Below, piece by piece: positions 460 to 55,889 of a DNA stretch of 64,000 nucleotides. The position numbers were made by a program, and so were the translations under genes. Under the pieces are notes generated by a model. It saw nothing but the letters and a program-made list of their open reading frames with translations, ran no database searches and was not told the origin of the DNA. Every line of letters begins with the position of its first letter. Position 1 is the stretch's first letter. This DNA is from an uncultured Gammaproteobacteria bacterium. Its GTDB lineage: Bacteria > Patescibacteriota > Patescibacteriia > UBA9934 > CAZDDW01. Location: NCBI GenBank assembly GCA_965231015.1, contig OZ246408.1, forward strand, positions 280,158 to 344,157. The letters are read 5' to 3'.

Positions 460-2244
460 ATGAAAAAGAATAACGAAAAATTAGACATGATGCGGCATTC
501 AGCGGCTCATGTTCTAGCCGCTGCGGTGGTCGAGCTTTGGCCGGACGCCAAATTTGGAGTTGGTCCAGTAATTGAAAATGGTTTCTATTATGACATTCTT
601 ACCAAGAAACCAATCAGTGAAGAAGACCTTCCGAAAATCGAGGACAAGATGTCTGAAATCATCAAACGTGATGAAAAGTTTTTGCGTGAAGAAATGCCGA
701 TTGATGAGGCCATTAAACTGTTTGAGGGAATGAGCCAGGACTTCAAAGTTGAATTACTTACTGATCTAAAAGAAAAGGGTAGTACTAAGATCTCGGAAGA
801 AGAGGCTCAAGACGTGGGGGAAAAACCGAATGAAGCTTCAGTTTACAAGACCGGTGAGTTTGTTGATTTGTGTCGTGGTCCGCACATGAAGTCAGCTGGG
901 AAGATCGGACCGTTTAAGTTGCTTTCGGTTGCCGGGGCTTATTGGCGGGGCAGTGAAGAAAATCAGATGTTAACTCGCATCTACGGAACCGCCTTCCAAA
1001 AACAAAAGGAATTGGACGAACACTTGGCCATGCTCGAGGCGGCTAAAGAACGTGATCACCGCAAGATCGGGAAAGATCAAGAGTTGTTTTTGATTGATCC
1101 TGAAGTTGGGCTTGGTTTACCGCTATGGTTCCCCAAAGGTGCTCGAATTTGGCGCATCATTGAGGATTTCTGGTATGAGCAGCATTACGCACATGGTTAT
1201 GAGTTAGTTCGCTCACCACATATTGGAAATGTTGAGTTGTGGGAAACCTCAGGACATACTCAGTTTTACAAGGATGATATGTATTCGGAAATTACTGTTG
1301 ATGATGAACGATACTTGTTAAAACCAATGAACTGTCCTTTTCATGTAAAACTTTATAACTCTCGGCCTCATTCCTACCGAGAAATGCCTTTGCGGTGGGC
1401 TGAGTGTGCTACAGTTTATCGATATGAAAAGTCTGGTCAGTTGTCAGGATTGACTCGCGTTCGAGGTTTTACGCAGGATGATGCACATATTATTTGTCGA
1501 AAAGAGCAGGTTGAAGATGAACTGCGTGCCGTTGTTGATTTTATTCAGGAATACTTTAAAGCTTTTGGATTGACCGAGTACAACGTGTATCTATCACTAC
1601 GGGATCCAAACAATAAGGAGAAGTATGCGGGCGATGATGCTGGTTGGGAGTTTACTGAGGGGATTCTTAGGAAGATAGCAGAGGAGTCTGGTATGGATTA
1701 TGAATCTGAAGAAGGTGAAGCGGCTTTTTATGGTCCAAAACTGGATTTCAAATTTAAAGATATGTTGGGAAGAGAGTGGCAGTGTCCAACCCTGCAGTTT
1801 GATTTCAACTTACCTGAACGTTTTGATATGACTTTTATTAATGAGAAAGGTAAGGAAGAACGTCCATACATGTTACACCGAACAATCATGGGCTCATTTG
1901 AGCGTTTCCTGGCAGTGTTAATGGAACACTACAATGGAGCTTGGCCAATGTGGCTGGCGCCGGTGCAGGTGCAATTGATTAGTGTTGGGGAAGGGCATAT
2001 TGAGTTTGCTCAAGAAATTGAAGCTGAATTGAAAGCGGCCGGTGTTCGAGCCGAAGTTGATGCCGGGGACGATACTGTTGGAAACAAGATTCGCAAAGCT
2101 GCTAAAGAAAAAATCCCTTGGACTATTGTGCTTGGCGATAAAGAGGTTGGCGGTGAACCGTTCAAGGTTCGAGTCTTTGGACAAGAAGATGAACTCGAGA
2201 TAAAACGGGAAGAGTTGGTTGATCGGATCAAACAAGAGGTATAA
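460..2244 (+). CDS. thrS: Threonyl-tRNA synthetase (short form starting at the editing/N2 domain)
   Basis: The 594-aa ORF has the HSAAHVL editing motif, class II catalytic core motifs and a C-terminal anticodon-binding region. Confidence 0.9.
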   Translation: MKKNNEKLDMMRHSAAHVLAAAVVELWPDAKFGVGPVIENGFYYDILTKKPISEEDLPKIEDKMSEIIKRDEKFLREEMPIDEAIKLFEGMSQDFKVELLTDLKEKGSTKISEEEAQDVGEKPNEASVYKTGEFVDLCRGPHMKSAGKIGPFKLLSVAGAYWRGSEENQMLTRIYGTAFQKQKELDEHLAMLEAAKERDHRKIGKDQELFLIDPEVGLGLPLWFPKGARIWRIIEDFWYEQHYAHGYELVRSPHIGNVELWETSGHTQFYKDDMYSEITVDDERYLLKPMNCPFHVKLYNSRPHSYREMPLRWAECATVYRYEKSGQLSGLTRVRGFTQDDAHIICRKEQVEDELRAVVDFIQEYFKAFGLTEYNVYLSLRDPNNKEKYAGDDAGWEFTEGILRKIAEESGMDYESEEGEAAFYGPKLDFKFKDMLGREWQCPTLQFDFNLPERFDMTFINEKGKEERPYMLHRTIMGSFERFLAVLMEHYNGAWPMWLAPVQVQLISVGEGHIEFAQEIEAELKAAGVRAEVDAGDDTVGNKIRKAAKEKIPWTIVLGDKEVGGEPFKVRVFGQEDELEIKREELVDRIKQEV

Positions 2245-2293: not shown

Positions 2294-3157
2294 TTATTTA
2301 CCTCCAAACAGTCCTCGAAGGAATCCCATAATTCCCCCCGTTTTCTTTGTTGGTTCCTTTTTTGCTGAGACCACCTCGCCGGTTTTTGGCAGACGGTTCG
2401 TTTTCGGATCATCTTCATTCTCAGATTCTGTCAATACCCCACTTGTTTTGGTTTTACCAATACCTCCTTGACGCACATCTTCCAAAAACGCTTCGTGAAC
2501 AGCAATAGCATTGGCTTCCGCCTTGCCATCATTGAAAAATTTTTCTGAGTTGGAAAGCATTTGTGCTTGTTCTTCCGGGGTACTGCTTTGGTATTGCTCG
2601 ATTAGATTTCCGTAAGCCTTGGCATGATCAACGAAGTCCTTGTCTCGCATCATATCCAGTAACTTGGCGGTAGCGTCAGCTTCAGGGGCGGCTTGGCGAG
2701 CCAAAGCATTCTTACGCTCCAGCATAGCTTTTTTCCAGTAATTCATTTCCAGTCCATCAAGACCCAACTCGTCACCGATTTCATCTACTGAAGATTCAAC
2801 AACATGTTCGTATGAACGAAGTTTGCTTTCAGGAATTGATTCTCCAGTGACATCTCGTCCATGAAGCTCGGCGATTAAGGTTGCGCCTGGTTTTTTGGTT
2901 TCCAGAGCCTTGGCAATAATCTTGTCTTTATAGGCCTGCATGGTCTCTCTATATTTTTCAGCCTGCTGACCTTCAAGACCAAGCTCATGAGCGGCCTCCT
3001 CAATAGTTTCGTCAAACATTTCCTCCAAGGCTTTTTCCTCACTACCGATTTCACTTGCCATTTGTTCTAATTCAGATTCAAATTTTGTATCTTCTGGACT
3101 TACTTTTGGTGCTTCCGCACCTTTATTTTTTGCCATAAATTTATGAATATTTAGCAT
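2294..3157 (-). CDS. Hypothetical acidic, largely helical protein (287 aa)
   Basis: Long ORF with host-like composition, Glu/Ala/Lys-rich. No recognisable motifs. Confidence 0.55.
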   Translation of the reverse strand: MLNIHKFMAKNKGAEAPKVSPEDTKFESELEQMASEIGSEEKALEEMFDETIEEAAHELGLEGQQAEKYRETMQAYKDKIIAKALETKKPGATLIAELHGRDVTGESIPESKLRSYEHVVESSVDEIGDELGLDGLEMNYWKKAMLERKNALARQAAPEADATAKLLDMMRDKDFVDHAKAYGNLIEQYQSSTPEEQAQMLSNSEKFFNDGKAEANAIAVHEAFLEDVRQGGIGKTKTSGVLTESENEDDPKTNRLPKTGEVVSAKKEPTKKTGGIMGFLRGLFGGK

Positions 3158-3192
3158 GGTTAACCCTTAAATCGTAGTAAAAATAGGCATTT

Positions 3193-3236
3193 TTGTCAAT
3201 TTGGAGGTTGACAAATTTATTTTTTTCGGCTAATCT
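3193..3236 (+). promoter_or_regulatory. Sigma-70-like promoter (TTGACA at 3208-3213, 17-bp spacer, TAATCT at 3231-3236) overlapped by the inverted repeat TTGTCAA-N8-TTGACAA (candidate operator)
   Basis: Read directly. It sits ahead of a strong RBS (AGGAGG) and the ATG at 3281. Confidence 0.45.
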
Positions 3237-3280
3237 GAGGTCTTCTTCTGGATATCAGCGGAAGAGGAGAAGGAGGCGGT

Positions 3281-3751
3281 ATGGTGGCAACAGTGAGTCC
3301 GCTCGTAGGTCAAGACAGCAGTGTCGAACACACACTCGCGTGTACGCTTCAGGGGAACGACATCCTGGTCGACTACTTGGCCACGGAGCTGGTCGCGATC
3401 GGCGCTGGCAGTGAGGCGGCCGTGGTGATCCTGAACGTGATCGGGCGTTCGATCGGTTCGTCCGTGATTCGGGTGATGCCGAGCGACCTCGGTCGTCTGG
3501 CATCGCTGGACGATCAGGAGGCCATGACAAGGCTCAAGAGCCACCTGTATGACAGGCACCCCGATTTCGGACGTGCTTTCATGCAGTGTCTACTGGCTTT
3601 GAAGATGTGTGGTCCGGCTGACCAGATCGCTGCTGGCATCGAGGAACCGGAGGATGCCAGGGTCAGCGCGTATCGACCGCTACTCGACATCTTCACGGTC
3701 GCCTACGCACTGCTCGCCGGCTGCTCCTTCGACGCGCGCAGTAACGACTGA
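3281..3751 (+). CDS. Hypothetical protein (156 aa), first gene of a GC-rich island
   Basis: Strong promoter, RBS and downstream terminator. About 60% GC versus about 45% for the flanks. No recognisable domain. Confidence 0.5.
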   Translation: MVATVSPLVGQDSSVEHTLACTLQGNDILVDYLATELVAIGAGSEAAVVILNVIGRSIGSSVIRVMPSDLGRLASLDDQEAMTRLKSHLYDRHPDFGRAFMQCLLALKMCGPADQIAAGIEEPEDARVSAYRPLLDIFTVAYALLAGCSFDARSND

Positions 3752-3769
3752 GCGCCATCCACTTCTACG

Positions 3770-3808
3770 ACGGACAGAACCCCCTCGGGTCCTGTCCGTT
3801 TTTGTTTT
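3770..3808 (+). terminator. Intrinsic terminator after the 3281-3751 ORF
   Basis: ACGGACAG/CTGTCCGT 8-bp stem followed by TTTTTGTTTT. Confidence 0.55.
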
Positions 3809-3850
3809 GGTAAAAGTAAGACCGGCCATTCATTGGGCCGGTCTGAGAGG
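3805..3850 (-). terminator. Intrinsic terminator for the minus-strand helicase gene
   Basis: AGACCGGCC/GGCCGGTCT 9-bp stem. On the minus strand it is followed by a T-rich stretch. Confidence 0.4.
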
Positions 3851-3869
3851 TGTGTTTTATGAGGTGGGA

Positions 3870-4915
3870 CTACTTTTTCTTCTTGTTGGCGGTGCCGAGG
3901 AACTCCAGCCAGCTGATCCAGTCCTCCTTGTAGTACGAGTTGGGGTTCGAGGGGAGTCGTGGATCATCTGTCTTACGGTTACCCTTGTACTGCCCGACAG
4001 CTTTGTACCCAAGTGACCGAGTGGCGGTTCGGGCTTCCTGGTAAGTAGAATACAGTTCTGGGCTTGTTGGTCTTTCTAAGAACTCATCCCAGCTGACCCA
4101 ATCGGAAGCGTACTTTTGCTGCGGGTGACCAGGGAGTCTTGGGTCAGTATTACGACCTTGGAGATATCCTGGATATGTTGTTATCCCGAGAGCACGAACA
4201 GCAGCTCGAGCTTCTTGGTAGGTGGCATACAGTTGAGATTTATTCTTCCTTCCGAGGAAGTCATCCCAACTAACCCAGGTTGCCTTATAGGTCTGCCTTG
4301 GTTCTGAAGGCAATCTTGGGTCGATCCGACGTTTATTCGTATATTCTTTGCTTGTTTGCACTCCGAGCCTCTGTACCGCTGCTCGAGCTTTTTCGTACGA
4401 TTCATACAACGGCAGCTTGGCAGTTCTTCCCAGAAAGTCATCCCAGCTGATCCAAGATTCGTAGAAGGAGTTGGGGTTGGAAGGAAGTAAGGGATCCTCG
4501 TTATACCGCTTTCCATATTCAGTGGTGTTGGTAACACCACCAAGAGCTTGGACAGCAGCACGAGCCTCTTCATAGGTTTTGTAGAAGGTCTTTTTTTGAG
4601 TTCCTAGGAAGTCATCACCGCTGACCCATTCATTCGCATATTTTTTATATGGACTTGCCGGAAGACGAGGGTCTTGTTTGTATCCCGCCTTGTATTCCTT
4701 CATGTCCTTGAACCCGAGGGCCTGTGCGGCAGCCTGAGCCTCAGCGTAGGTGGGGTATTTTATCCGTTTGTTTTCAGTCCCCAAGTAGTCAGGCCAATTT
4801 GTCCAATCGGATGGATATGCCATGCGAGGGGAACACGGAAGTTTGGGATCAGTTTTATATAGAGATTGATACTCCATACAATTTTTTGGTCCCAGCGCTT
4901 GCGCAGCAGCTTGAG
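3870..4915 (-). repeat. Six imperfect tandem repeats of about 175 bp encoding the helicase C-terminal repeat module
   Basis: Periodic recurrence of GTCATCCCAGCTGA[CT]CCA-like cores at about 180-bp spacing (near 4085, 4262, 4440, 4620, 4800) and of the protein motif. Confidence 0.7.
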
Positions 4916-6176
4916 CCTCTTCGTAAGTCTCATAAGGTGTGGTGTTGAGCCGGTCAAGTACCTTCAGGAGGTCCAGGATCTCGGTGGTGAAACCGAGCTT
5001 GAACTGGTTACTCGTGATGTCGATCGTCTTAGGCTTGTCGTCACCTCCACCGTAGTGGGTGACGTCGAGGCCGAGTTCATGAACCGCCAGAATGCGGTCG
5101 CAGTTGGCCACGAAGTCGAGGACCGTGACGTTCAGCTTTTCGGCAGTGCGGCGCAGGCCGCGGCCGAGTTGCTGAAGCCAGATGGTCTTCGAGTCCGTTG
5201 CCCGCAGGAACACGATCAGTTCCGCGTCCGGGATGTCGATACCCTCGTTGAACTTGTCGATAACGAGGAGGGTCTTCAGCTTTCCGGAACGGAAATCGCG
5301 CATCCGTTGCTCGAGGCCACTCTTTCCCACCTTGGAGTGGTACTGACGAGCCTCGGGCATGAGCTTGGCAACACGCCGGGCGTGCTTGATCGAACGACAG
5401 AAGATGATGGTCTTCTTGCAAGCCCTACCGGGCTGTCGTTGATGCTCACGGATGATCCGGACCTGCTCTTCCATCCTCTCCTTAAGGAAGATAGTGTCGT
5501 CTAGCTGCTTGCGCGAAACTGTGCGGTCACCATCTCCAACTCGTCGAATCAGTTCGTGGAGCTGTCGGATATCCAGGTTGTCGGTCAAAAGGTGATAGTC
5601 CACCCGCGCCAGCCATTCATCAGCCGCGATTGCCTTGGCGAGGTCATAGGTGTAAACCTCGTCGCCGAAGATATCGCGAATGTCTCGACCGTCCGCACGT
5701 TCACGTGTGGCGGTCAGGCCAACGAGAAGCAGAGGGTCGAAGTGTCGGATAGCAGGCTCGTAGGTCACAGCCTTGCCGTGATGAGCTTCATCTACCACGA
5801 TGAGATCGAACATGTCGGCCGGGAGGCTCTTGTAGGCAGTGCGCATGGTCTGTAGAGTCGTGAAGACCACTTCAGCACCATTGCAGCGCGCCTGGAAGTT
5901 GTTGGATCCGATGACCACGTGGGTCTCGTGTCCGTGCTCTTCCAAGCTCTCCTTGAACTCGTCGGCATTCTGGGTCGTGATGTCGAGACTATCGACCATG
6001 CACAGAACGCGGTTGATCCCCTCGTTGTGATTGAGAAGCAGTTCAGTAACATGGCTCGCGAGCACGGTCTTACCGAGCCCGGTGGCCATAACGATGAGGG
6101 CCTTGCTAAGACCCTCACTAACCGTCCGCCACAGATTATCTGCAGCTTCTTGCTGGTAGGGTCGTAGAGTTTTCAT
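3870..6176 (-). CDS. SF2 (DEAD/DEAH, SSL2/type-III-res-like) helicase fused to six C-terminal tandem 58-aa aromatic repeats. The ORF extends to 6251, but the likely start is the Met at 6176 (MKTLRPYQ).
   Basis: Motif I GLGKT, motif II VVDEAHH, motif VI QQLGRGLRR. Six repeats follow with consensus Y-x-[ST]-Y-[EQ]-E-A-[RQ]-A-A-[VA]-x-x-L-G ... DPRLP-x-x-P ... W-[VI]-S-W-D-[DE]-F-L-G. Confidence 0.8.
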   Translation of the reverse strand: MKTLRPYQQEAADNLWRTVSEGLSKALIVMATGLGKTVLASHVTELLLNHNEGINRVLCMVDSLDITTQNADEFKESLEEHGHETHVVIGSNNFQARCNGAEVVFTTLQTMRTAYKSLPADMFDLIVVDEAHHGKAVTYEPAIRHFDPLLLVGLTATRERADGRDIRDIFGDEVYTYDLAKAIAADEWLARVDYHLLTDNLDIRQLHELIRRVGDGDRTVSRKQLDDTIFLKERMEEQVRIIREHQRQPGRACKKTIIFCRSIKHARRVAKLMPEARQYHSKVGKSGLEQRMRDFRSGKLKTLLVIDKFNEGIDIPDAELIVFLRATDSKTIWLQQLGRGLRRTAEKLNVTVLDFVANCDRILAVHELGLDVTHYGGGDDKPKTIDITSNQFKLGFTTEILDLLKVLDRLNTTPYETYEEAQAAAQALGPKNCMEYQSLYKTDPKLPCSPRMAYPSDWTNWPDYLGTENKRIKYPTYAEAQAAAQALGFKDMKEYKAGYKQDPRLPASPYKKYANEWVSGDDFLGTQKKTFYKTYEEARAAVQALGGVTNTTEYGKRYNEDPLLPSNPNSFYESWISWDDFLGRTAKLPLYESYEKARAAVQRLGVQTSKEYTNKRRIDPRLPSEPRQTYKATWVSWDDFLGRKNKSQLYATYQEARAAVRALGITTYPGYLQGRNTDPRLPGHPQQKYASDWVSWDEFLERPTSPELYSTYQEARTATRSLGYKAVGQYKGNRKTDDPRLPSNPNSYYKEDWISWLEFLGTANKKKK

Positions 6177-6296
6177 TGTGTAGCCCTTTTGTTGTTTGTT
6201 AAATTGTGAAGAACAAGGGCGTAATTTAGTATAAAAATGGCTTATTGTCAATGGTCTATTGTAATTTTAGCCAAATTTTGATATTATCCTGTCATT

Positions 6297-7619
6297 ATGG
6301 AGCCAAAGAAATACCACATCATCACTTACGGGTGCCAAATGAACAAAAACGATTCAGAACGGATCGCGAGTTTGTTATCGGATCTTGGAATGGAATGTAC
6401 GGATGATGAGCACAAGGCTGATCTGGTTCTGTTGAATTCTTGTTCGGTAAGACAGACTGCAGAGGATAGAGTTATGGGAAAGGTTCGAACTTTGAATAAA
6501 GCTCGAAAAAAGAAGCCCGAGCTTGTGATTAGTGTGACTGGCTGTATGGCCGGGCGGGATAAAGACGGCAAGCTCAAGAAGAAAGTTCAGGGGGCTGATT
6601 TGTGGTTTGCCACGGCTGACGCAGTCAACTTGCCACGTTGGATCGCCGAGCTCAGGCCGGGTTGGGTAAAAGCCACTGAATCGGTTGAAGAATTTTTAAA
6701 GCTCAAGCCACATTATCACTCAAACAAGCAGGCCTTTGTGACCATTCAAACCGGATGCAGTAATTTTTGTACTTACTGTGTGGTCCCATCAGCGCGAGGA
6801 ATGGAAGAGAATCGGCCGCTGGCTGATATCATGAATGAGATTCGCGAACTCGCAACAAACGGTTGTCTCGAGATCACTTTGCTCGGTCAGGTGGTAAATG
6901 CCTATGTGGCCCCGGATCCTGAAAACTTTTCCAAAGACAATCCGTATCAGGATCATTTTGCGGCCTTACTGTGGGAGATAAATCAGATTGACGGACTTGA
7001 ACGAATTCACTTTACTGCCCCGCACCCTCGCCACATGACCGACGAGCAGATCGATGCCCTGGCTTTGTCGAAACAGCTAAACTTTTTACATCTTCCAGTT
7101 CAGTCAGGCTCGAACGAGATCTTGGCTCGCATGAATCGTAAACACACCCGTGAGGAGTATCTTGAACTCATCAAAAAGATCAAGGCTCGGGTTCCTGGAA
7201 TTGCCCTGGGGACAGATTTGATCGTAGGGTTTTGTGGTGAAACAAAAGAACAGTTTGAGGAAACCGTGAGTTTGTATAAGGAAGTCGAGTTTGATATTAG
7301 CTACACCGCGCAGTATTCGGAGCGTTCAGGAACGGTGGCGGACAAGGTGTTTAATGATGACGTGACTCGAGAAGAAAAAAAGCGGCGTTGGGAAGTGATA
7401 CAGGATTTGATGGAAGGAATTACCCTCAAAAAGAACCAAGCCTATCTTGATCAGGTTGTCTCGGTCATGGTTGAAGGGTGCAATAACGGTATATGTTTTG
7501 GAAACTCGCGCGAAATGAAAGTAGTCAAATTTCCAGGGGGCGAAAAAATAGTAGGAACCATTCAAGATGTAAAAATATCTGAAGTACAAACTTGGATTTT
7601 GAAAGGAGAAAAAATATGA
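6297..7619 (+). CDS. miaB: tRNA methylthiotransferase (radical SAM, MiaB/RimO family; probably MiaB)
   Basis: N-terminal MTTase Cys motif, radical-SAM CxxxCxxC (CSNFCTYC), C-terminal TRAM region. Located upstream of miaA. Confidence 0.8.
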   Translation: MEPKKYHIITYGCQMNKNDSERIASLLSDLGMECTDDEHKADLVLLNSCSVRQTAEDRVMGKVRTLNKARKKKPELVISVTGCMAGRDKDGKLKKKVQGADLWFATADAVNLPRWIAELRPGWVKATESVEEFLKLKPHYHSNKQAFVTIQTGCSNFCTYCVVPSARGMEENRPLADIMNEIRELATNGCLEITLLGQVVNAYVAPDPENFSKDNPYQDHFAALLWEINQIDGLERIHFTAPHPRHMTDEQIDALALSKQLNFLHLPVQSGSNEILARMNRKHTREEYLELIKKIKARVPGIALGTDLIVGFCGETKEQFEETVSLYKEVEFDISYTAQYSERSGTVADKVFNDDVTREEKKRRWEVIQDLMEGITLKKNQAYLDQVVSVMVEGCNNGICFGNSREMKVVKFPGGEKIVGTIQDVKISEVQTWILKGEKI

Positions 7620-10080: not shown

Positions 10081-10953
10081 CTATTTTTCTTTAGAAGCTT
10101 TAGCACTTTCAAAGACCAGATAATCAGCTGTTAAAACCAGAGGGTTAATGAGAGCAGTAACCACAATTACAATTACAGCATTTGAGATGCGGAGTAATTT
10201 TTCTGCTATTTCTATGTTTAGTCCAGCCGCTCCAGTGACAACATAATTAATAATTAGAGTGATAAAAAATTGTAGCAGGGCAAAGGCAGAGAAGAAAACT
10301 AGTTTTGGAATCACCAGTCGCCAGAACACTGGCCAGAATCGTCCTTTGACAAGATCAGAACTGTGACGGAAAGCCTTTTTGCCTTTTTCGTTTTCAAGCA
10401 CTACCGAATAACCGATGAAGAAGTATTTAATTGCCCACCAGATCACAAGGATTAATAGAGTAATAGTACCCGCTACAGCCAGGATTGAGCCGAGCAAACC
10501 AAGAATTGGTACAGTAGGAGCTAATATGGACATCAGGAGACCTGGCAGAACCAATAGTATCGGGGCCAGAATCAGTAAAGTGAACAAAATATTAACAATC
10601 AACAACGGCCAGAAGTATTTCCAGCTACCCATGGCGATTTCTTTCAAGTCAACCTTTTTTTCTTTCATTTCCGCATCAATTAGTTTGACGAGGGTAATGA
10701 AAAGCCAGATTCCGAGCACGGGTCCAACAATAAAGGAGCTAAACATGGCCAGGTATATTCCGATGTTTTCCATGGTTGAAAGTTCAACACCGGTGACCAA
10801 GTCCAAGGTGGTGGGGTAGAGCAGGAAACTGATGGTGTAGAGGGCGGCCAGAATCAGAAACCAGGCTGAGATACTCACGAGCTCTACAAAGTGCTTGCGG
10901 TAGTGTTCCCAGGCAATATCAATAATCTGTCCGACAGATAACATTTGTTTCAT
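10081..10953 (-). CDS. Polytopic membrane protein (hypothetical)
   Basis: 290 aa with at least 6 hydrophobic helices. Confidence 0.55.
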   Translation of the reverse strand: MKQMLSVGQIIDIAWEHYRKHFVELVSISAWFLILAALYTISFLLYPTTLDLVTGVELSTMENIGIYLAMFSSFIVGPVLGIWLFITLVKLIDAEMKEKKVDLKEIAMGSWKYFWPLLIVNILFTLLILAPILLVLPGLLMSILAPTVPILGLLGSILAVAGTITLLILVIWWAIKYFFIGYSVVLENEKGKKAFRHSSDLVKGRFWPVFWRLVIPKLVFFSAFALLQFFITLIINYVVTGAAGLNIEIAEKLLRISNAVIVIVVTALINPLVLTADYLVFESAKASKEK

Positions 10954-10961
10954 ATTTTTGT

Positions 10962-11672
10962 TTAAATAAGTTTTTCTAAAAGTTTTATAAAATTGATTGT
11001 CATGGCTTGTTTTGGTATTCGAGTATCGAAAGTGTGAACTGAGGTTCCTTGTTTGAAAAAGATCTCGGAGTACCAGTCGGATCTATATCTTTCGGCTACT
11101 TTTTTCAAGAACTCAAGATTTTCGAAAACACCTTTTGAATCATCATCTCTGTTTTTGATGCGCTCGATAATAGCTTCTGGATCAAGGTCTGTCAGAACAA
11201 GTAAGTCAGGTTTATTTTCGAGGGCTAGCTTGTTGCCAGGCAGATTCATGACTTCGTCGAGAGTGATTGTCTCATCCATGATTGGTTGGTAGGCGATTGA
11301 AGTGGATACTGATCGGTCTTGGATGATAATTTTGTTGTCTACAAGTGCCGGCAAGATCAATCTTTTGTACATAATTAGCCGGTCGAGGGAAAGGGCTTGG
11401 GCAAGAACAATGCCCGGATACGGGTCGTCTGTTCTTGAAAGTTCGTAACGAATTGCGGCACCAGTCCATGCTTTATTTGGTTCAAAAGTGAAATAAATGT
11501 CGTAGTCTTTTACCTGGTCGTAAGTTGGTGGCTCGACGTGATCTTTGTTCCACTCAAGCAGATCAAAAATTTTATAGTCCCGCGATTCAGCCCAAAATTT
11601 AGCTGCTTTCATCAATGTTGATTTGCCTGATCCGGCAATTCCGTCAATGACAACAAATTTACTCTCTTTCAT
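10962..11672 (-). CDS. P-loop nucleotide kinase, thymidylate-kinase-like
   Basis: The VIDGIAGSGKST P-loop resembles Tmk or deoxynucleoside kinases. Context is the dut/folA/thyA cluster. Confidence 0.5.
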   Translation of the reverse strand: MKESKFVVIDGIAGSGKSTLMKAAKFWAESRDYKIFDLLEWNKDHVEPPTYDQVKDYDIYFTFEPNKAWTGAAIRYELSRTDDPYPGIVLAQALSLDRLIMYKRLILPALVDNKIIIQDRSVSTSIAYQPIMDETITLDEVMNLPGNKLALENKPDLLVLTDLDPEAIIERIKNRDDDSKGVFENLEFLKKVAERYRSDWYSEIFFKQGTSVHTFDTRIPKQAMTINFIKLLEKLI

Positions 11673-11689
11673 AGCCTAATTATAGCAAA

Positions 11690-12115
11690 TTATCCGGTAG
11701 TTCCGAAGCCGCCGCGGTTAGGGCCGGTCATTTCTTGAACTTCCTCGAATTCGGCGACTGAAATCGGAACAAACAGGCCTTGTCCAAGTCTCTCGTAAGC
11801 CTCAACTGTGTAGGGTTCACTACCGTGGTTGTGTAAAGCAAGTCGGAGCTCGTCTTCCGGTCCGCAATAGTCTTGATCAATCACCCCGACTCCGTTACCA
11901 AACGAGATTTGTTTTTTTGCGTTTGATGATCGAGGGAATAGGAGCAAGGCATGTCCTTCCGGAACGGTCATAACATAGCCAGTTTTGACGAGCTTGCTTT
12001 CGCCCGGCTCGATCGTCACTGCTTCTCGAACATGCAAATCAAAAGCAACTGAACCCGGAGTTTTGTACTCGGGCATGGGGACGTTTGGATCGATTCTTTT
12101 TATCTTTACCCTCAT
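11690..12115 (-). CDS. dut: dUTP diphosphatase (trimeric dUTPase)
   Basis: Motifs GVIDQDYCG and C-terminal GGFGTTG. Confidence 0.85.
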   Translation of the reverse strand: MRVKIKRIDPNVPMPEYKTPGSVAFDLHVREAVTIEPGESKLVKTGYVMTVPEGHALLLFPRSSNAKKQISFGNGVGVIDQDYCGPEDELRLALHNHGSEPYTVEAYERLGQGLFVPISVAEFEEVQEMTGPNRGGFGTTG

Positions 12116-12585
12116 ACTTTTTTATAAGTCACAAATTTATATCCGTCGTAGATGTCTTCTTCGGTCACTTCCCATCTCTCAGGATCGATAGTAGGGAAGT
12201 AAGTGTCACCTGCGTATTCATTATCAAGGTGAGTGATCTCGAGTTCGTCGGCCAAGTTCATACTAGCCTGATAAATTGAAGCGCCGCCGATGATAAAGAT
12301 GTGCTCGTTTTTGTGTTTGGCAACTGCGTCTTCAATGCTACTGTGTACGCGGCAACCGTTCGGGACCGGATAATCGGTTTGACGAGTTATGACGAGGCTA
12401 GTTCGATTAGGGAGTGGTTTACCAAGTCGATCCATGATCGACTCGAACGTCTTTCGGCCCATCAATACTGTATTTCCAGTGGTCAGTTTTTTGAACCGCT
12501 TCAAGTCTTCTGGTAAATGCCAGGGCAGATCATTATCTTTTCCAATAACATTATTTTTTGCTATTGCGGCAATAATCGTGATCAT
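12112..12585 (-). CDS. folA: Dihydrofolate reductase
   Basis: IIAAIAKNNVIGKDNDLPWHLPEDLKRFKKLT matches the classic DHFR N-terminal region. Confidence 0.85.
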   Translation of the reverse strand: MITIIAAIAKNNVIGKDNDLPWHLPEDLKRFKKLTTGNTVLMGRKTFESIMDRLGKPLPNRTSLVITRQTDYPVPNGCRVHSSIEDAVAKHKNEHIFIIGGASIYQASMNLADELEITHLDNEYAGDTYFPTIDPERWEVTEEDIYDGYKFVTYKKV

Positions 12586-13454
12586 ACTGCGATGTCAAAT
12601 TCAATCTTTGGATAAGATTCGTAACCAACCAGCTTAGTATTTAGTGGTTTCCAATCAAAGATCGATGTGAAGTTCTCGGTTTCAAGACGCGGGTTCGAAT
12701 ACCTTTCAGGGTCCCGAGTCAATTGCTCCTTAGCACCGTCAAGATGGTTTTCGTAAATGTGTGTATCAGCCAAGAAACCAACCAACTTTCCTTCTTCAAA
12801 GCCGGATTCTTTAGCGAGCAAGTGCAAAAGTAGGGCGTAAGAAGCAATGTTGAACGGAAGGCCGAGCATGGTATCGACTGAGCGTTGGTTCCAAAGCAAG
12901 TTAAGCTTGCCGTTGATGACGGTCACTTGGAAGGCATAGTGGCACGGAGGCAGAGCCATTTCATGTAAAAACGATGGGTTCCAGGCTGAGACGATCATGC
13001 GTCGGTCGTGCGGATTCTTCTTCAACATGTCGACCATGTTTTGTAATTGATCAACCCCTTTACCGGTATGGTCAACATTATGTCCTTCATATTCGCCATT
13101 AAAATTTCGCCATTGAAAACCGTAAATCGGACCCAGATCTCGTTCCTCCATCATGCGACGTTTTGATTCCTCGTCGTGCCCATACGGTGCTTTCTTTGGT
13201 GTTGCCCATTCATCCCAAATATGATTTTTCCGTTTTTGTAACCAGTGTTTATCCGTAATGCCATTGATAAAAAAAGCCAGCTCTGTGGCAATACATTTGA
13301 ACGGCATCTTTTTTGTAGTCAAAAGTGGGAAGCCTTCGGACATGTCATGTTCAAACATGGCTCCGGCTACGGCCATGGTGTCGATTCCGGTGCGATTTTC
13401 TTTACGTTCCCCCTTTTCTAGGACAGTTTTAACAATGTCTAGGTATCCTTTCAT
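12582..13454 (-). CDS. thyA: Thymidylate synthase (ThyA). The likely start is the internal Met (MKGYLDIV).
   Basis: RTG(I/T)DT and the catalytic PPCH motif (LPPCHYAFQ). The ORF-track start 13517 adds 21 aa upstream. Confidence 0.85.
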   Translation of the reverse strand: MKGYLDIVKTVLEKGERKENRTGIDTMAVAGAMFEHDMSEGFPLLTTKKMPFKCIATELAFFINGITDKHWLQKRKNHIWDEWATPKKAPYGHDEESKRRMMEERDLGPIYGFQWRNFNGEYEGHNVDHTGKGVDQLQNMVDMLKKNPHDRRMIVSAWNPSFLHEMALPPCHYAFQVTVINGKLNLLWNQRSVDTMLGLPFNIASYALLLHLLAKESGFEEGKLVGFLADTHIYENHLDGAKEQLTRDPERYSNPRLETENFTSIFDWKPLNTKLVGYESYPKIEFDIAV

Positions 13455-13567
13455 AGCAATTTTATTACATATAACGTCCTTACAATTTAGCAGAAAACGG
13501 CTCTGAAAACAAACCAAAAAACCACAGGTTTTACACCTATGGTTTTGGTTTATTTTTAGGTAAATAT

Positions 13568-14173
13568 TTATTTCGCCACCTGTATTTCTCCAGCTTCGAT
13601 CTTGGCAATAAATTCGGCAATTTTGGTTTGGTATTCTTCAAGCGTGCCGTCGTTCACGATATAGTAATCTGCCATAGCAATCGGCCCGCCTTTTTCAATG
13701 TTCTCAATTTCAGCCTTGTCTCGGGCTTTGGCTTCGTCGCGTGAAAATTTCCGGTTTCTCAGGTCTGGATCATCTGCTCCTGAAACGCGAGCCTCGAGCC
13801 GTTGATACCGCAGTTCTGGCGGAGTTGCGATCGCGACCACAATCATGTTCTCGCCATACTTTTCTCGCAAAACTTTGTACTCTGACCAGCTGTAGAGCCC
13901 ATCACCAACCACATTGCCTTTTTCAAGTTCGGCATCAAACTTCGGCATGTTCAGAATTGCAAAAGCGGCCATGCCATGTTCAGCTCGGAATCCCTCACGA
14001 ATCTCTTTTTCAAGGGCCTCACTTGGTTCTTCACCCCTGCGCTTTACCTCATCGAGTGTGATTTGCCCAAAACGAATAAACTCAAATCCTTTTTCAACTA
14101 ACGCATCAGCCAGAACACTTTTTCCAGCCCCACACATTCCGACAATACAAACTAACTTATTCATATTATTCAA
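13568..14173 (-). CDS. P-loop (d)NMP kinase-like protein
   Basis: GMCGAGKS P-loop, adenylate/dNMP-kinase-like size (201 aa). It lies between thyA and dCMP deaminase. Confidence 0.45.
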   Translation of the reverse strand: MNNMNKLVCIVGMCGAGKSVLADALVEKGFEFIRFGQITLDEVKRRGEEPSEALEKEIREGFRAEHGMAAFAILNMPKFDAELEKGNVVGDGLYSWSEYKVLREKYGENMIVVAIATPPELRYQRLEARVSGADDPDLRNRKFSRDEAKARDKAEIENIEKGGPIAMADYYIVNDGTLEEYQTKIAEFIAKIEAGEIQVAK

Positions 14174-14642
14174 CCGGTTTTAGTTCCTTAGATTCATATT
14201 GGTGGTACTTGACTCCAGCCATGTCGAGCATGCGTCGTGAGGCCTGACAGATTTCAGTATCATGATATTTGTCACTGGCGTAAATTACCTCTGTGATTCC
14301 ATTCTGAATAATAGTTTTAGTGCATTCGTTGCAGGGGAACAATGTGCAGTAGATTTTACAACCGTTAGTTTTTGCATTTGAGTTATAAATGGCATTTTCT
14401 TCTGCGTGACAAACGTAGGCGTACTTGGTTTCTAAAAATCCCCCTTCGCGAGACCATGGTAATTCGTCGTCTGAACAACCTCGTGGAAAACCGTTGTAGC
14501 CGAGCCCGACAACCACTTGATCTGGGTTAACCACGACTGCACCGGCCTGGGTACTTGGATCTTTTGATCGATCCGCCATTACGTGGGCAATTCGCATGAA
14601 GCATTCGTCCCATGAGATGTAATCTTGTCTTTTTTCATTCAT
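14166..14642 (-). CDS. dCMP deaminase (cytidine/deoxycytidylate deaminase family)
   Basis: Zinc-binding HAEENAI ... PCNECTK motifs. Confidence 0.85.
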   Translation of the reverse strand: MNEKRQDYISWDECFMRIAHVMADRSKDPSTQAGAVVVNPDQVVVGLGYNGFPRGCSDDELPWSREGGFLETKYAYVCHAEENAIYNSNAKTNGCKIYCTLFPCNECTKTIIQNGITEVIYASDKYHDTEICQASRRMLDMAGVKYHQYESKELKPVE

Positions 14643-14751
14643 AGCAATTGTTTAATTCTCCTCTAATTTAACAGATTAGGCGGGGAGAGGCAAATCAAAA
14701 GACCCGCCGTTTAAGCGAGTCCCTGATCCTTTATACTTTGTCCGCTGTCCT

Positions 14752-15429
14752 TTATTCAACCTCGAGCTTGATACTTGGTCCCATGCTGGTGGTAAGATAC
14801 ATTGCCTTGAGGTAGATCCCCTTGGCTGTGGCTGGTTTGGCCTTTTTAACAGCGTCCATCATGGCATCGAAGTTGGCTTTGATTTCACCTTCATCCTGTG
14901 AGACCTTTCCGATTTTCACATGCAGGTTGCCGCCGTTGTCATTACGGAAACTCAACTTTCCGGCCTTCTGCTCCTTGATCATTTTTTCCAGGTCGTCACT
15001 GACGGTATCAGTCTTTGGATTTGGCATTAATCCTTTTGGGCCCAATACTCTTGCCGCTTTGGCAACTTTTGGCATCATGCTTGGTGTTGCTACCATGACA
15101 TCGAAGTCAGCTTTTCCTGTTTTAACAATCTCGTTGATAATATCTTCACCACCAGCCATATCAGCTCCGGCCTTTTTGGCAGCATTTACTTTATCGTCTT
15201 CTACGATAGCGGCTACACGTTTACTCTCACCTTTCATGTGGGGAAGAGCAATAGTACCACGAACGATCTGGTCGGTTTTTTCAACATCGATTCCGAGTCG
15301 AATATGTAGTTCGATTGAGGCATCAAACTTCACGGTGGAAGTTTCTTTGGAGAGCTTAATCGCTTCATCAATGGCGTAATTTTTGTCCTCTTCAAGTTTA
15401 GCCTTGGCCTCCTTGATTCGCTTTGACAT
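14752..15429 (-). CDS. rplA: 50S ribosomal protein L1
   Basis: Full-length similarity to uL1 (KFDASIELHIRLGIDVEKTDQIVRGT...). Confidence 0.9.
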   Translation of the reverse strand: MSKRIKEAKAKLEEDKNYAIDEAIKLSKETSTVKFDASIELHIRLGIDVEKTDQIVRGTIALPHMKGESKRVAAIVEDDKVNAAKKAGADMAGGEDIINEIVKTGKADFDVMVATPSMMPKVAKAARVLGPKGLMPNPKTDTVSDDLEKMIKEQKAGKLSFRNDNGGNLHVKIGKVSQDEGEIKANFDAMMDAVKKAKPATAKGIYLKAMYLTTSMGPSIKLEVE

Positions 15430-37600: not shown

Positions 37601-37750
37601 GCCTCCAGTGAGGTTGAATAGGTCAACCTTGTACCGTGCGCGGCGGTAACCGCGCCAGGCCCGTTTGGCGGGCCGAGTTTCTGTCCCAGGGTTACCAAAG
37701 CGCTGGCCGTCAGGCTGTCGCAAGGATCCCCAAGGATGGAGGGTTTTGGA

Positions 37751-38464
37751 ATGTCAGATTTGTTCAACGTGGGCCACGCGGCCCAACTGCATGAGATACA
37801 GAAGGCGCGCTTGGCGCGCAACGAGCCCGGGATCGGGCCGGAGGTGGAGGAGCTCATCCGGCGCTTGACCTCGGGCGGCGTGGCCGGCAAGGTCGTGGAT
37901 GACATCCGGCTGATCCAGGCCAAGCGGTTCTTCGACCGCGGCTTCGGCCGCGAGCTTGGCCTCAAGGACTTCGCGGCCTACCTCGCGACCATCCCGACCG
38001 TGCCCGAGACGCTCCTCGCGGACGACCCGAACTTCCCGCTCCTCGTCCTCGGCGAGCCCCGCCTCGGCCTTACTCGCGCTTGCGAGCTCATCGGCCTGCG
38101 CTACACGGGCAGCGACCAGACGCTAGTCCCGTTCGACAAGCGTCACGCCGAACCGACCAAGCCGTGGTGGTTCAGCATGCACGACGGCCGGCGCAACCGT
38201 AACCGCAAGCCGAGCGACTGCCGCACGAGCCTCGGTGCAAACGAGATCAGCGCCACGGCTTTGCGTGGAGTCTGCACCTTCCTGCACCACCCGGGCGTGA
38301 TCGTGCAGGGGGAACACTGTGTGGATCTGCCCGGCTCGGTCGACGCCGAGTACCGCGGCTACAACGCCGACCTCGGCATTTGGCGCGACGAGCCGAGGCT
38401 CTACAGAAGCATGAGCGGTTTCGCCGACCTGGACTACGGTTCGGCCTCCTGCCGGGAGTGCTGA
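37751..38464 (+). CDS. DGR target (variable) protein, GC-rich, no signal peptide. The C-terminal approximately 40 aa are encoded by the VR.
   Basis: About 62% GC ORF with RBS GGAGGG. Its 3' 122 bp align to the TR with mismatches confined to TR adenines. Confidence 0.7.
   Translation: MSDLFNVGHAAQLHEIQKARLARNEPGIGPEVEELIRRLTSGGVAGKVVDDIRLIQAKRFFDRGFGRELGLKDFAAYLATIPTVPETLLADDPNFPLLVLGEPRLGLTRACELIGLRYTGSDQTLVPFDKRHAEPTKPWWFSMHDGRRNRNRKPSDCRTSLGANEISATALRGVCTFLHHPGVIVQGEHCVDLPGSVDAEYRGYNADLGIWRDEPRLYRSMSGFADLDYGSASCREC
38338..38459 (+). repeat. DGR variable repeat (VR), 3' end of the target gene
   Basis: 122-bp alignment to 38781-38902. About 27 differences, essentially all at positions where the TR has A (for example TR AAC/AAG/AAC against VR GAC/GAG/CGC). 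The 3' 25 bp are identical, consistent with an IMH-like anchor. Confidence 0.75.
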
Positions 38465-54368: not shown

Positions 54369-55889
54369 CTAGAGGAGGGGGAGGACCCACTCGGGTACGT
54401 GACCGATCTGGAGCGGGGTACAGGCGAACTCGGCCATTTCCGCGTAGCGGTTGCGGTAGTTTAGGCTCACTTTCTGGCAGACCCGACGGAGAACACGCTT
54501 GATCTCGTCCATGTCCTCGTCAGTGAGGCTTGGAACGCGGTCGCGTAGTTCAGTTTCCGAGTTCAAGAGTAAATCAGCCCAGATCCAGATGCCGGCCTGG
54601 TCGAGCTTGATTTCGACCTCCGGACTCGGGTGGTCGGATCGTTGAGCATCGTGGCGGTGGCACCGGCAGGTCAGCGAGCTCTTGAGTACGCGCCAGGCCA
54701 GCAAGTCCTCCACGAACATCGTAGGCAGGTTCATGCCCAATGATAGACCGAGCTCGGCCAAGATATCCTTGAGCTCGTTCAAGCTCTTGCGGCCAAAATT
54801 TTTGGTGCGCAACATGTCAGCCTCGCGGCGGATCACCACTTCGAAGAGGAACATGACGTTCTGGTTCTCGAGGCAGTTATGGGTGCGTCGCGAGAGTTCG
54901 AGGCCACTGACCGGCTTCATCAGGTTCTGGATTATGGCCGGATCGAGGTTGACCTTGGGAGTGGACACGGTCCGGCCGGGCTGCCACAGCTCGAGGCGCA
55001 GAACCTGTTGTTCCAGCTTCTCAACCTGTGCCCGGGTCTGATCCAGGCTCCAGCGCAGGCTTCGCATCTCGTTCGGCTCCGGCGTCCACCACAGGTCCTC
55101 AAAGTGCTGCTTGTCCGTTGGACGGCGCAGCTTGCGCAAAGCCTTGGCCCGGAACTGCCGGACGCGCTCGCTCGAGTAGTTCATTTCGCGAGCGAGCTCG
55201 CTCTGCTTCGTGGGTGGGTTGCCGTCGAGGCCGTAGAGCTCGGTGATCACAATGAATTCCCGCGGCGTCAGTCTCGAGCGGAGGCACTCATCGATCCACT
55301 CGTGGTCGTCGATCCGCCAGTGCGGACAGATCTTGCTGCCCGCCATCAGATCATGATCTTCCTTGACGATCAGGTCCTTCAGCTCGATGACGTTGATTGG
55401 GCTCGGGTACTCGCCGAGCTCGATGGCCCGCAGGACCATGTCGAGCAGGTCCGGAGCGGGTTCGTTCTCAAGATTGATCCCGAGCACCGCGGCCACGAGG
55501 GGCACGTACGGCTCCTGCTCCGGGTACACCCGCGGACGCAGGAAGGGCCGCAAGCCCCGGGTCACACCGTGCGCGAAGTCGACCATACCGAGCTCCTCGA
55601 AGACGTACTCCTGAAGGGCGCAGAACAGCTTGGCCTCGACGCTGTCGACCGCGGGAGTCTCGACCGTGAACTTGGCCAGACGCTGCACGATACCCGTGAG
55701 GCGTTCACTTTTGCCCGGTCGGTCCGGGAAGCACTTGGTCATGCCGCCACGGGCCTGAACGTCGTTGCGGATCGCTCCATCCGACCAGCCGACGTACTTG
55801 GCGGTCTCCGGATAGGTGAAGCCCAGCTTAACGAGTTCGTGAACCAGAGGCCAGCGCTCGCGGCGATTCTGATGGTAATCTCGTCTCAT
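54369..55889 (-). CDS. Transcription-factor-like protein combining a sigma-70 region-4 HTH and an RNAP alpha-subunit C-terminal-domain-like (alpha-CTD) segment
   Basis: LTPREFIVITELYGLDGNPPTKQSELAREMNYSSERVRQFRAKALRKLR matches sigma region 4. LELSRRTHNCLENQNVMFLFEVVIRREADMLRTKNFGRKSLNELKDILAELGLSLG matches the alpha-CTD HhH. About 58% GC. Confidence 0.55.
   Translation of the reverse strand: MRRDYHQNRRERWPLVHELVKLGFTYPETAKYVGWSDGAIRNDVQARGGMTKCFPDRPGKSERLTGIVQRLAKFTVETPAVDSVEAKLFCALQEYVFEELGMVDFAHGVTRGLRPFLRPRVYPEQEPYVPLVAAVLGINLENEPAPDLLDMVLRAIELGEYPSPINVIELKDLIVKEDHDLMAGSKICPHWRIDDHEWIDECLRSRLTPREFIVITELYGLDGNPPTKQSELAREMNYSSERVRQFRAKALRKLRRPTDKQHFEDLWWTPEPNEMRSLRWSLDQTRAQVEKLEQQVLRLELWQPGRTVSTPKVNLDPAIIQNLMKPVSGLELSRRTHNCLENQNVMFLFEVVIRREADMLRTKNFGRKSLNELKDILAELGLSLGMNLPTMFVEDLLAWRVLKSSLTCRCHRHDAQRSDHPSPEVEIKLDQAGIWIWADLLLNSETELRDRVPSLTDEDMDEIKRVLRRVCQKVSLNYRNRYAEMAEFACTPLQIGHVPEWVLPLL

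Follow-up and report, generated by a model that had tools for sequence, protein, structure and literature searches.

The locus between a 287-aa open reading frame (ORF) and miaB was analysed in a 64,000-nt stretch of contig OZ246408.1. This stretch is called the window, and all coordinates are window positions unless a locus code is given. L003, L005 and L096 are loci from three related genomes that were compared with the window. The locus contains a small ORF of 156 aa and, on the opposite strand, a gene for a superfamily 2 (SF2) helicase that ends in tandem INT_rpt repeats. Region 3190-6260 is two independent transcription units and not one island: ~3815-6296 is an insertion holding one monocistronic cassette of ~2.5 kb, and the small ORF lies outside it. 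The features are as follows.

2294-3157, minus strand: 287-aa ORF from the ORF listing, divergent from the small ORF.
3192-3215: inverted repeat TTTGTCAA-N8-TTGACAAA, read as two back-to-back -35 hexamers.
3231-3236, plus strand: putative -10 box TAATCT for the small ORF, spaced 17 nt from the -35, with 3/6 consensus bases.
3281-3751, plus strand: small ORF, 156 aa, a lineage-restricted acidic protein, resident upstream of miaB and outside the insertion.
3770-3809, plus strand: intrinsic terminator of the small ORF, with a 13-bp stem (3770-3799), 4-nt loop and T-run, kept in relatives.
3815-6296: lineage-only segment of ~2.48 kb, with the helicase gene, its own terminator and promoter, and a new miaB promoter.
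3819-3844, minus strand: intrinsic terminator of the helicase gene, with a 9-bp stem (7 GC pairs), then TACTTTTACC.
3870-6176, minus strand: helicase + INT_rpt gene, 768 aa, start ATG 6176; the database copy P0001 (768 aa) is 100% identical.
3891-4934, minus strand: six tandem INT_rpt (PF14882) units, aa 415-762 (Pfam E 3.2e-36, 6 stretches).
Repeat units, minus strand: r1 4758-4934, r2 4584-4757, r3 4407-4583, r4 4230-4406, r5 4053-4229, r6 3891-4052.
5022-6176, minus strand: SF2 motor core, aa 1-385, ResIII/DEAD + Helicase_C with motifs I, II (DEAH), III and VI; GC content at third codon positions (GC3) ~0.70.
6223-6251, minus strand: helicase promoter TTGACA-17-TAAATT, 10/12 consensus bases.
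6259-6287, plus strand: promoter-like site TTGTAA-17-TATTAT with TG extension, for miaB, back to back with the helicase -35 and 7 nt apart from it.
6297-7619, plus strand: miaB, from the ORF listing.

A preliminary description, made from the letters alone, had reported a GC-rich segment, an inverted repeat, the 156-aa ORF, the helicase and six repeats, and all of these were found where it had placed them. It had also taken the segment for a single horizontally acquired island with flanking bidirectional terminators. Both terminators are convergent and sit between the small ORF and the helicase gene, and promoter regions form the segment's outer edges. Relatives carry the small ORF at the same slot, together with its promoter, inverted repeat and terminator, so the single island was not upheld.

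The helicase gene is missing from this slot in L003, L005 and L096, where the small ORF is directly followed by miaB. The MiaB proteins of the window, L003 and L005 share 82-86% identity. In alignments with the relatives, homology ended at ~3812, right after the small-ORF terminator, and resumed at the miaB start codon. The insert replaces an ancestral miaB leader of ~75 nt, which bears the hairpin CTCGGGCAACCACGAGGGGTTGC; this hairpin is kept in L003 and L005 and absent from the window. The synteny comparison proposed in the preliminary description thus found the small ORF present and the helicase absent in all three relatives. Its idea of a lineage-specific acquisition was borne out for the helicase gene, which is absent from the slot in the three relatives and deviant in composition. 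Absence from the same locus in relatives, as expected of a genomic island, applies to the helicase cassette only. The other usual marks of an island (a mobility gene, a tRNA target and flanking repeats) were not found. A search revealed no target-site duplications, terminal inverted repeats or direct repeats bounding the insert; there was no integrase or transposase in the helicase protein or at the window locus, and nothing phage-like around the gene. A tRNA scan found no tRNA in the 64-kb window. Since the tRNA and Rfam scans of the whole window were empty, the GC-rich patches are not RNA genes.

The leader hairpin was also observed in its own right. It reads CTCGGGCAACC-ACGA-GGGGTTGC, lies at L003 5325-5365 and L005 975-1010 after a TATAYT -10-like box, and may be a 5'-untranslated-region element of miaB.

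The base composition of the segment is mosaic. In 400-nt intervals, GC was 0.57-0.62 over 3200-4000 and 0.54-0.60 over 4800-6200, with flanks of 0.40-0.47, while the repeat-coding third (4000-4800) had only 0.48-0.50. The reported GC of ~58-60% therefore does not hold uniformly over the segment. The GC3 was 0.73 in the small ORF (overall GC 0.61) and 0.70 in the helicase core; it was 0.33-0.49 in 40-odd other ORFs of the window. Within the helicase gene, GC3 fell from 0.62-0.87 in the motor to 0.37-0.53 over repeats 1-5, and repeat 6 had 0.69. The step is sharp and lies near aa 400 (~4975), whereas the difference in GC3 between core and repeats is at most 0.11 in homologues. The core and repeats also have different best homologues, and neither has a close donor. 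A recombinant (chimeric) origin, in which a GC-rich core was fused to host-like repeats, is possible for the gene.

The small ORF is a genuine coding sequence, because homologues exist and its changes relative to L003 are mostly synonymous. The homologues P0122 (85% identity) and P0123 (46%) were the sole clear ones among 5.8 billion clusters. The distant homologue P0125, located in L096, was found by a profile search of 1.84 billion representatives, which otherwise gave only the same lineage and two weak matches of the same length, one of them syntenic. No Pfam, NCBIfam or PHROG match was obtained for the small ORF. Its homologues are confined to its own lineage. One weak PADLOC match, to HEAT_CxxC_PD-DEXK (E 0.0037), was dismissed as noise. 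P0122, P0123 and P0125 occupy the same slot of L003 (4777-5250), L005 (408-887) and L096 (4025-4489), in the order thrS, divergent hypothetical gene(s), small ORF and miaB. The alignments showed that the promoter region, inverted repeat, -10 and terminator hairpin are kept in L003 and L005. The ATG at 3281 has an AGGAGG Shine-Dalgarno sequence upstream.

The small ORF maintains its high GC3 as a gene-specific property. The GC3 was 0.70 in L003 and 0.78 in L005, against 0.31-0.46 in core neighbours (thrS, miaB, miaA, gatB and hypothetical genes). In the more distant L096, from a 39%-GC relative, it was 0.46, with neighbours at 0.28-0.34. At four-fold sites of conserved codons, the small ORF was 49% identical between the window and L003, and the neighbour genes were 41-49% identical. 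Despite these near-randomised synonymous positions, GC at the four-fold sites of the small ORF stayed at 0.69 in the window and 0.67 in L003. The bias is therefore maintained and is not a relic of recent transfer, since the four-fold sites have diverged like those of the neighbours and still have a GC of ~0.68. The preliminary description had taken GC-richness as a sign of horizontal acquisition; in this lineage, high GC3 is an unreliable sign of recent transfer. It had also named conservation in relatives at the same GC as evidence against its island. Such conservation was found for the small-ORF half, and the helicase half is absent from relatives. As a separate observation, protein identity is 46% for the L005 allele of the small ORF, against 86% for the neighbouring MiaB. 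A maintained GC bias together with fast evolution or allele replacement is indicated.

The inverted repeat upstream of the small ORF is formed by arms TTTGTCAA at 3192-3199 and TTGACAAA at 3208-3215, separated by an 8-nt spacer. The right arm holds a perfect -35 TTGACA (3208-3213, plus strand) for the small ORF. The left arm reads TTGACA on the minus strand (3199-3194), and a promoter scan found TTGACA-17-TACGAT (3199..3171), placed for the divergent 287-aa gene. The promoter of the small ORF had been called textbook, which was correct for the -35 and overstated for the -10, as TAATCT matches the consensus at 3/6 positions and fell below the threshold of the promoter scanner. Around this -10, GCTAATCT is kept in L003 and L005. 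The TTGAC cores of both arms are invariant across the four genomes, and the 8-nt spacer varies freely. At 6246-6264 there is a second back-to-back pair of -35 boxes, TGTCAA 6246-6251 for the helicase and TTGTAA 6259-6264 for miaB. The inverted repeat can most simply be read, from these motifs, as two abutting -35 boxes of divergent promoters.

The repeat had earlier been proposed as a repressor site. A dedicated operator of a dimeric repressor, controlling the small ORF, the 287-aa gene or both, would fit the perfect 8-bp palindrome that overlaps both -35 boxes, and the arms are kept across the four genomes while the spacer varies. The symmetry reaches 1-3 nt past the hexamers in the window and L003, and in L003 the flanking bases change symmetrically (AATTGTCAA...TTGACAATT). 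The pattern is also over-represented in the window, with 3 matches against 0.6 expected. However, each arm coincides exactly with a consensus -35 hexamer that is followed on the same strand by a -10 at the right distance, the second pair at 6246-6264 lacks palindromic symmetry past its hexamers, and the symmetry outside TTGAC is lost in L005 and L096. No regulator gene is adjacent. The data fit either reading, but an operator is rather unlikely, and the earlier claim was not sustained. A perfect palindrome that covers a -35 box may be no more than a pair of divergent promoters. Apart from this site, TTGACA was depleted in the whole window (29 observed, 45.5 +/- 7.5 expected), and many copies lie just upstream of ORF starts, consistent with use as a -35 signal and avoidance elsewhere. 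One looser divergent TTGACA pair was seen at 55965-55970 (minus) and 55999-56004 (plus).

The helicase gene begins at ATG 6176 and encodes 768 aa, a start shared by the database copy and all homologues. The upstream TTG 6251 start (793-aa ORF, 3870-6251) was rejected, as this TTG belongs to the helicase's own -35 box. In Pfam, ResIII, DEAD and Helicase_C cover aa 28-385 of the 793-aa ORF (PF04851 2.1e-32, PF00271 4.1e-12). Motifs I (GLGKT), II (DEAH), III (TAT) and VI (QQLGRGLR) stand in nearly invariant columns of a 115-sequence alignment. Two RecA-like domains and motifs I, II, III and VI are thus present, as in an SF2 helicase/translocase, and ATPase activity is predicted on this basis. The earlier assignment to DEAD/DEAH-type helicases with motifs I, II and VI agreed with both the domains and the motif columns. 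An AlphaFold2 model of the protein had a mean pLDDT of 91.5. In the Protein Data Bank (PDB), the motor matched SauUSI (7clg, 2e-32), a Vibrio HsdR fragment (3h1t), RadD and XPB by sequence, and Foldseek gave the same ranking.

Matches of the motor to Pfam, NCBIfam and PADLOC families were limited to aa 16-406. The NCBIfam scores were far below the cut-offs: 91.7 against 720 for RadD, 49.9 against 610 for XPB, 138.7 against 550 for EcoAI-type HsdR and 32.5 against 284.55 for TIGR00348. At equivalog level the protein is thus neither RadD nor XPB, and their accessory domains were not detected. Pfam found no nuclease domain in the helicase protein, and the motor begins at residue 3-5. The SauUSI-type PLD nuclease was not found, nor was a DUF3427/SRA-like domain for recognition of modified bases; the C-terminus consists of six INT_rpt units. 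Type I HsdR was not indicated either, in HSDR_N, in hsdM/hsdS or in score, the neighbours being miaB and the 156-aa ORF. True SauUSI-like relatives (PLDc_2 + motor + DUF3427; L034, L052 and L078) and Mrr_cat + motor proteins occur in other phyla, with cores 32-36% identical. By domain content, the window helicase is a nuclease-less branch of the SauUSI/HsdR/RadD/XPB motor clade.

These relationships bear on a possible role in defence, which the preliminary description had also suggested. The protein might be the translocase subunit of a SauUSI/HsdR/PbeA-like system against phages or plasmids, with its nuclease elsewhere or with non-cleaving action, and INT_rpt would then serve in target recognition. 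The best PADLOC models were mREase_IV (2.6e-42), PbeA and REase_I, the nearest solved structure is SauUSI, and there are core relatives with a fused PLD or Mrr nuclease. At the window locus the gene is accessory, and one homologue adjoins a small HNH gene. However, all defence-model matches are confined to the generic motor; the mREase_IV match, for example, covers aa 46-383 against profile positions 237-568 of 945. No nuclease domain is present in the protein, and no methyltransferase, nuclease or other defence gene adjoins it in the window or at most homologue loci, where the surrounding genes are of housekeeping type. INT_rpt is also present on Gamma-Mobile-Trio (GMT) islands, in which the GmtZ integrase occurs with GmtY and GmtX and which carry defence cargo (bioRxiv 10.1101/2023.03.28.534373), but the INT_rpt array of GMT systems is part of the integrase and not of the cargo. 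The window protein has no integrase domain, and no GmtY, GmtZ or GmtX genes were found within 10 kb on either side. Since a nuclease domain, partner genes and a conserved neighbourhood are all lacking, the defence module was not supported, and a split defence motor is quite improbable.

The C-terminal repeat was identified as Pfam PF14882, INT_rpt ('integrase repeat unit', formerly PHINT_rpt), with 123.8 bits and E 3.2e-36 over six stretches; the gathering score is 26.5 bits. The profile search suggested earlier for the repeat has thus given an uncharacterised Pfam family. The repeats start at aa 415, 474, 532, 591, 650 and 709, so that the period is 58-59 aa, or 174-180 nt. They are old, being 34-53% identical to one another in amino acids and ~50% in nucleotides. 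Tandem Repeats Finder reported no repeat over 3700-6300, the units being too diverged at the DNA level. The helicase protein is identical in three independent assemblies, without variation in repeat number, so the variation that the preliminary description had proposed to look for was not seen, and copy-number instability is unlikely.

An AlphaFold2 model of two repeats, built on 61 sequences, had a pLDDT of 93.3 and a pTM of 0.60. The predicted fold has two helices of ~10 residues followed by two short helices. Because of the pTM of 0.60, the model suggests that the repeats are flexibly joined, like beads on a string. When the array was compared with PDB sequences, no match appeared even at E 10, and the weak best fold match of the repeat was the FF domain. 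The literature searched states no function for PF14882; the family serves there solely as an 'integrase' marker of virome pipelines and is named in a list of repeat families that lack a structure. The N-terminal part of GmtZ/VPA1269 integrases also consists of INT_rpt units. Other partners of INT_rpt are HA 'helicase-associated', DUF4379 treble-clef zinc-finger and sigma-70 domains, and INT_rpt arrays are basic, with a median pI of 9.4 and a net charge of ~+2.6 per repeat. Nuclease-less sister helicases, with cores 34-39% identical, bear HNH_repeat (PF18780) or HTH_50/NUMOD-like arrays at the same C-terminal place, where zinc-finger arrays of sister helicases also occur. The HNH_repeat sisters come from Saccharibacteria, Nomurabacteria and one viral (IMG/VR) contig, and the HTH_50/NUMOD-like sisters include the two closest IMG/VR contigs. 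Because sister helicases bear other arrays at this position, the tail can be regarded as an exchangeable slot for DNA-binding arrays, a plug-in C-terminal slot of the helicase clade. Common ancestry of INT_rpt and HNH_repeat was not indicated (hhalign probability 0.55%), and the arrays are analogous swaps rather than detectable homologues. By analogy, the INT_rpt array would be a DNA-binding tether. The nucleic-acid-binding array proposed earlier is plausible from the partner domains, the equivalent arrays on sister helicases and the basic charge.

Giant-virus proteins were the best fold matches in the BFVD database. The two-repeat model matched SF2 helicases of ~550-780 aa at E 1.8e-4 to 0.28: A0A2H4UVX6 (Bodo saltans virus), A0A3G4ZSX7 (Terrestrivirus) and A0A1V0S9X9 (Catovirus). 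The helicase-plus-repeat layout may thus occur outside bacteria as well, in Klosneuvirus-type viruses.

A protein search gave more than 4,000 relatives of the helicase, and statements on the family rest on the best 120. All of these combine helicase and INT_rpt, with 33-53% identity and 1-8 repeats (mode 4-5, custom hidden Markov model). They are full-length relatives, with E 0 to 1e-96 and, for most, 65-97% query coverage; the core of the best homologue is 53% identical. The named sources are all Patescibacteria (candidate phyla radiation, CPR): Uhrbacteria, Magasanikbacteria, Sungbacteria, Paceibacterota and 'Patescibacteria group'. The source contig of the window has 1,002,985 bp at ~44% GC, and its size and these homologues suggest a CPR host. 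Some members are already labelled 'integrase repeat-containing protein' by NCBI. The sequence data place the window helicase as an ordinary member of a known but uncharacterised Patescibacteria-wide helicase + INT_rpt family. The architecture had been called non-standard, which does not agree with its presence in all of the best 120 relatives or with a repeat that is in Pfam. The combination is catalogued and abundant in Patescibacteria, and one more copy changes little.

No gene was common to the eight homologue neighbourhoods examined. The settings were holA + rpsT; Gmad2 + a zeta-toxin-like kinase; glycosyltransferases; a ParB-methylase/nuclease region (for a sigma fusion); Der GTPase + the small HNH gene; and khpA/Wzy_C-trmD (twice). 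The family gene behaves as a solitary, self-contained cassette. It is usually somewhat GC-richer than its flanks and equals them in 2/5 genomes. Between khpA/Wzy_C and trmD, two tandem helicase + INT_rpt paralogues were observed in L100 (6001-11419) and L101 (6001-10098), and L100 also has a 267-aa INT_rpt-only gene.

The solitary or tandem homologues wedged into conserved operons, and their usual GC-richness, could also indicate a phage or mobile-element remnant or 'moron', that is, a phage replication/recombination helicase or a selfish gene hopping between intergenic sites of Patescibacteria. The strongest family-level match of the protein was phrog_16 'DNA helicase' (9e-63). Core homologues, all core-only, were found in 2052 records of a phage collection (27-34% identity) and in at least 472 IMG/VR stretches scanned with the family alignment; with the single protein as query, IMG/VR yielded no relative. 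Viral relatives share the layout of a motor followed by a C-terminal DNA-binding array, and INT_rpt-like tails occur on the giant-virus SF2 helicases and in jumbo phages; the repeats alone matched three jumbo/huge phages, in unannotated or hypothetical ORFs not recognised by Pfam. The repeat types are also those of integrases and homing endonucleases. However, none of the phage and IMG/VR records, at least 472 stretches in the case of IMG/VR, has helicase + INT_rpt; in them coverage was at most ~50-55% of the query and identity 26-39%. No phage genes, integrase, att-like repeats or tRNA were found at the window locus, and the gene equals its flanks in GC in the 2/5 genomes mentioned. A phage or selfish remnant is therefore improbable at this locus. 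The suggestion of a phage-derived module fails for the surroundings of the gene and is possible for the deep ancestry of the motor, given phrog_16 and the phage core homologues.

Natural fusions of the family gene point to another possible role. In P0079 and P0114 (L014 8001-11381), sigma-70 (r1.2, r2, r3, r4) and a DnaA_C-like HTH are fused to helicase + INT_rpt. The helicase could accordingly work with RNA polymerase or sigma, as an XPB/TFIIH-like opener or a RapA/Mfd-like recycler, with INT_rpt binding promoter DNA or the polymerase. A sigma-70 gene adjoins a helicase homologue in Rhizobium phage 16-3, a sigma factor gene lies near one in L099, XPB is among the nearest characterised motors, and the FF domain, the weak best fold match, binds the C-terminal domain of RNA polymerase II. 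Against this, the fusions are only 2/120, no RNA polymerase or sigma gene lies beside the helicase in the window, and the NCBIfam score for XPB is the 49.9 bits given above against 610. A transcription-coupled motor is very unlikely. A further idea would be that INT_rpt arrays are a modular, possibly sequence-selective DNA-targeting device common to GmtZ integrases, Patescibacteria SF2 motors and sigma-helicase fusions, which is highly speculative. If it were true, helicase + INT_rpt would be a site-directed motor at promoters or origins, a bacterial analogue of XPB/TFIIH-type DNA opening. The FF-like repeats would contact DNA or RNA polymerase, and INT_rpt would be a new DNA-recognition fold without a solved structure.

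The results favour a locus of two units, in which a resident small ORF is followed by an inserted, laterally acquired helicase/INT_rpt motor for DNA maintenance; the probability of this reading is put at about 60%. The N-terminal RecA-like pair would act as an ATP-driven double-stranded DNA translocase/helicase, as the Walker A, DEAH and arginine-finger motifs are intact. Its motor would come from the clade that drives restriction enzymes of the SauUSI and Mrr types as well as phage 'DNA helicases', here without a nuclease. The six INT_rpt modules would be a multivalent tether that binds DNA and so recruits the motor to it or anchors it there; they stand in the place held by the target-recognition domain of SauUSI or by the arrays of sister helicases. 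The helicase would act alone, with neither nuclease nor partner gene, and its role would be DNA maintenance (repair, recombination, or remodelling and clearing of protein-DNA complexes) rather than restriction. The most likely guess for its function is such a maintenance role. None of the split defence motor, the phage or selfish remnant and the transcription-coupled motor is directly supported at the window locus.

A lateral origin is proposed because the core has a GC3 of 0.70 against ~0.42 in the host and the core of the best homologue is only 53% identical. The gene would most likely have come from a GC-richer patescibacterial donor, by a route that left no integrase, tRNA or repeat scars. 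Since the small ORF shows maintained high GC3, the case rests mainly on absence from three related loci and secondarily on composition. Several points weigh against the proposed origin and function. As the small ORF keeps a high GC3 in this lineage, the GC of the helicase is weak evidence for recency; ancestral presence with three losses is an alternative, although less parsimonious; and the gene has a sharp internal GC3 step. As to function, the cellular role of the helicase is a guess, 3/6 repeats in the window protein are acidic, and the literature searched reports no experiment on INT_rpt.

The comparison of tails given above is the first comparative argument that INT_rpt is a DNA-binding module, and PF14882 should not count as evidence of an integrase. 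With a confident in-silico fold and no solved relative, the INT_rpt repeat is a cheap structural and biochemical target.

Other observations were made in the window and its relatives. At least four other window ORFs are GC3-rich (0.67-0.88, against a genome GC3 of ~0.42), and there are at least four GC-rich patches in the 64 kb. The 506-aa ORF at 54369-55889 (minus, GC3 0.81) lies in another GC-rich patch and is an odd transcription-factor fusion of Sigma70_r4 (aa 206-255) and the RNA polymerase alpha C-terminal domain (aa 321-379). The ORFs at 37736-38464 (plus, 0.88) and 61409-62554 (minus, 0.83) had no Pfam match, and that at 62784-63893 (minus, 0.67) had a weak fn3 match. ThrRS (window 460-2244; L003 1978-3768) is 65% identical and the flanking genes 72-92%; thrS may have been replaced or may be fast-evolving. 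The thymidylate module is not the same in the two genomes: the window has thyA + DHFR at ~11700-14200 (= L001 1535-4487), and L003 has a 600-aa ThyX (Thy1) with a Y1 transposase at the corresponding position (10856-14864). An 82-aa GIY-YIG gene is present in L011 (16519-18007) as five evenly spaced tandem copies, on a 0.9-Mb contig that also has a helicase + INT_rpt gene.

The window protein was finally compared with known systems. The patescibacterial family proteins, recorded as 'DEAD/DEAH box helicase family protein' or 'integrase repeat-containing protein', such as P0008 (Uhrbacteria), P0046 and P0058 ('Patescibacteria group'), P0068 (Sungbacteria) and P0086 (Magasanikbacteria) have the same architecture: a motor from residue 1, a linker of ~30 aa, 1-8 C-terminal INT_rpt units and conserved motifs. 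Unlike these relatives, the window copy, which is 33-53% identical to them and has six repeats, has a motor unusually GC3-rich for its host and is absent from the syntenic locus of the host's relatives. The sister helicases with HNH_repeat or HTH_50/NUMOD-like arrays belong to the same motor clade and likewise have small helical modules of 45-60 aa in tandem behind the motor, but the repeat family differs.

SauUSI has the nearest solved motor (sequence E 2e-32, Foldseek E 3.5e-19), and both proteins have a C-terminal region after the motor that recognises DNA in SauUSI and would do so in the window protein. SauUSI, however, has its own N-terminal PLD nuclease and a C-terminal DUF3427 target-recognition domain. 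Because both are absent from it, the window protein is not a restriction enzyme by architecture. RadD and XPB/Rad25 are the next-nearest characterised motors (E 2e-16 to 2e-13) and are likewise without their own nuclease, but they differ in the equivalog scores and accessory domains noted above. GmtZ/VPA1269 resembles the window protein in its array, which has eight INT_rpt units; over the full set of six repeats of the window protein, the Marinobacter copy shows 42% identity. In GmtZ, the array is N-terminal and fused to Integrase_2/Phage_integrase, and the integrase works with GmtY and GmtX, none of which is found at the window locus. For the single repeat, the weak best fold match remains the FF domain of Prp40 and TCERG1.

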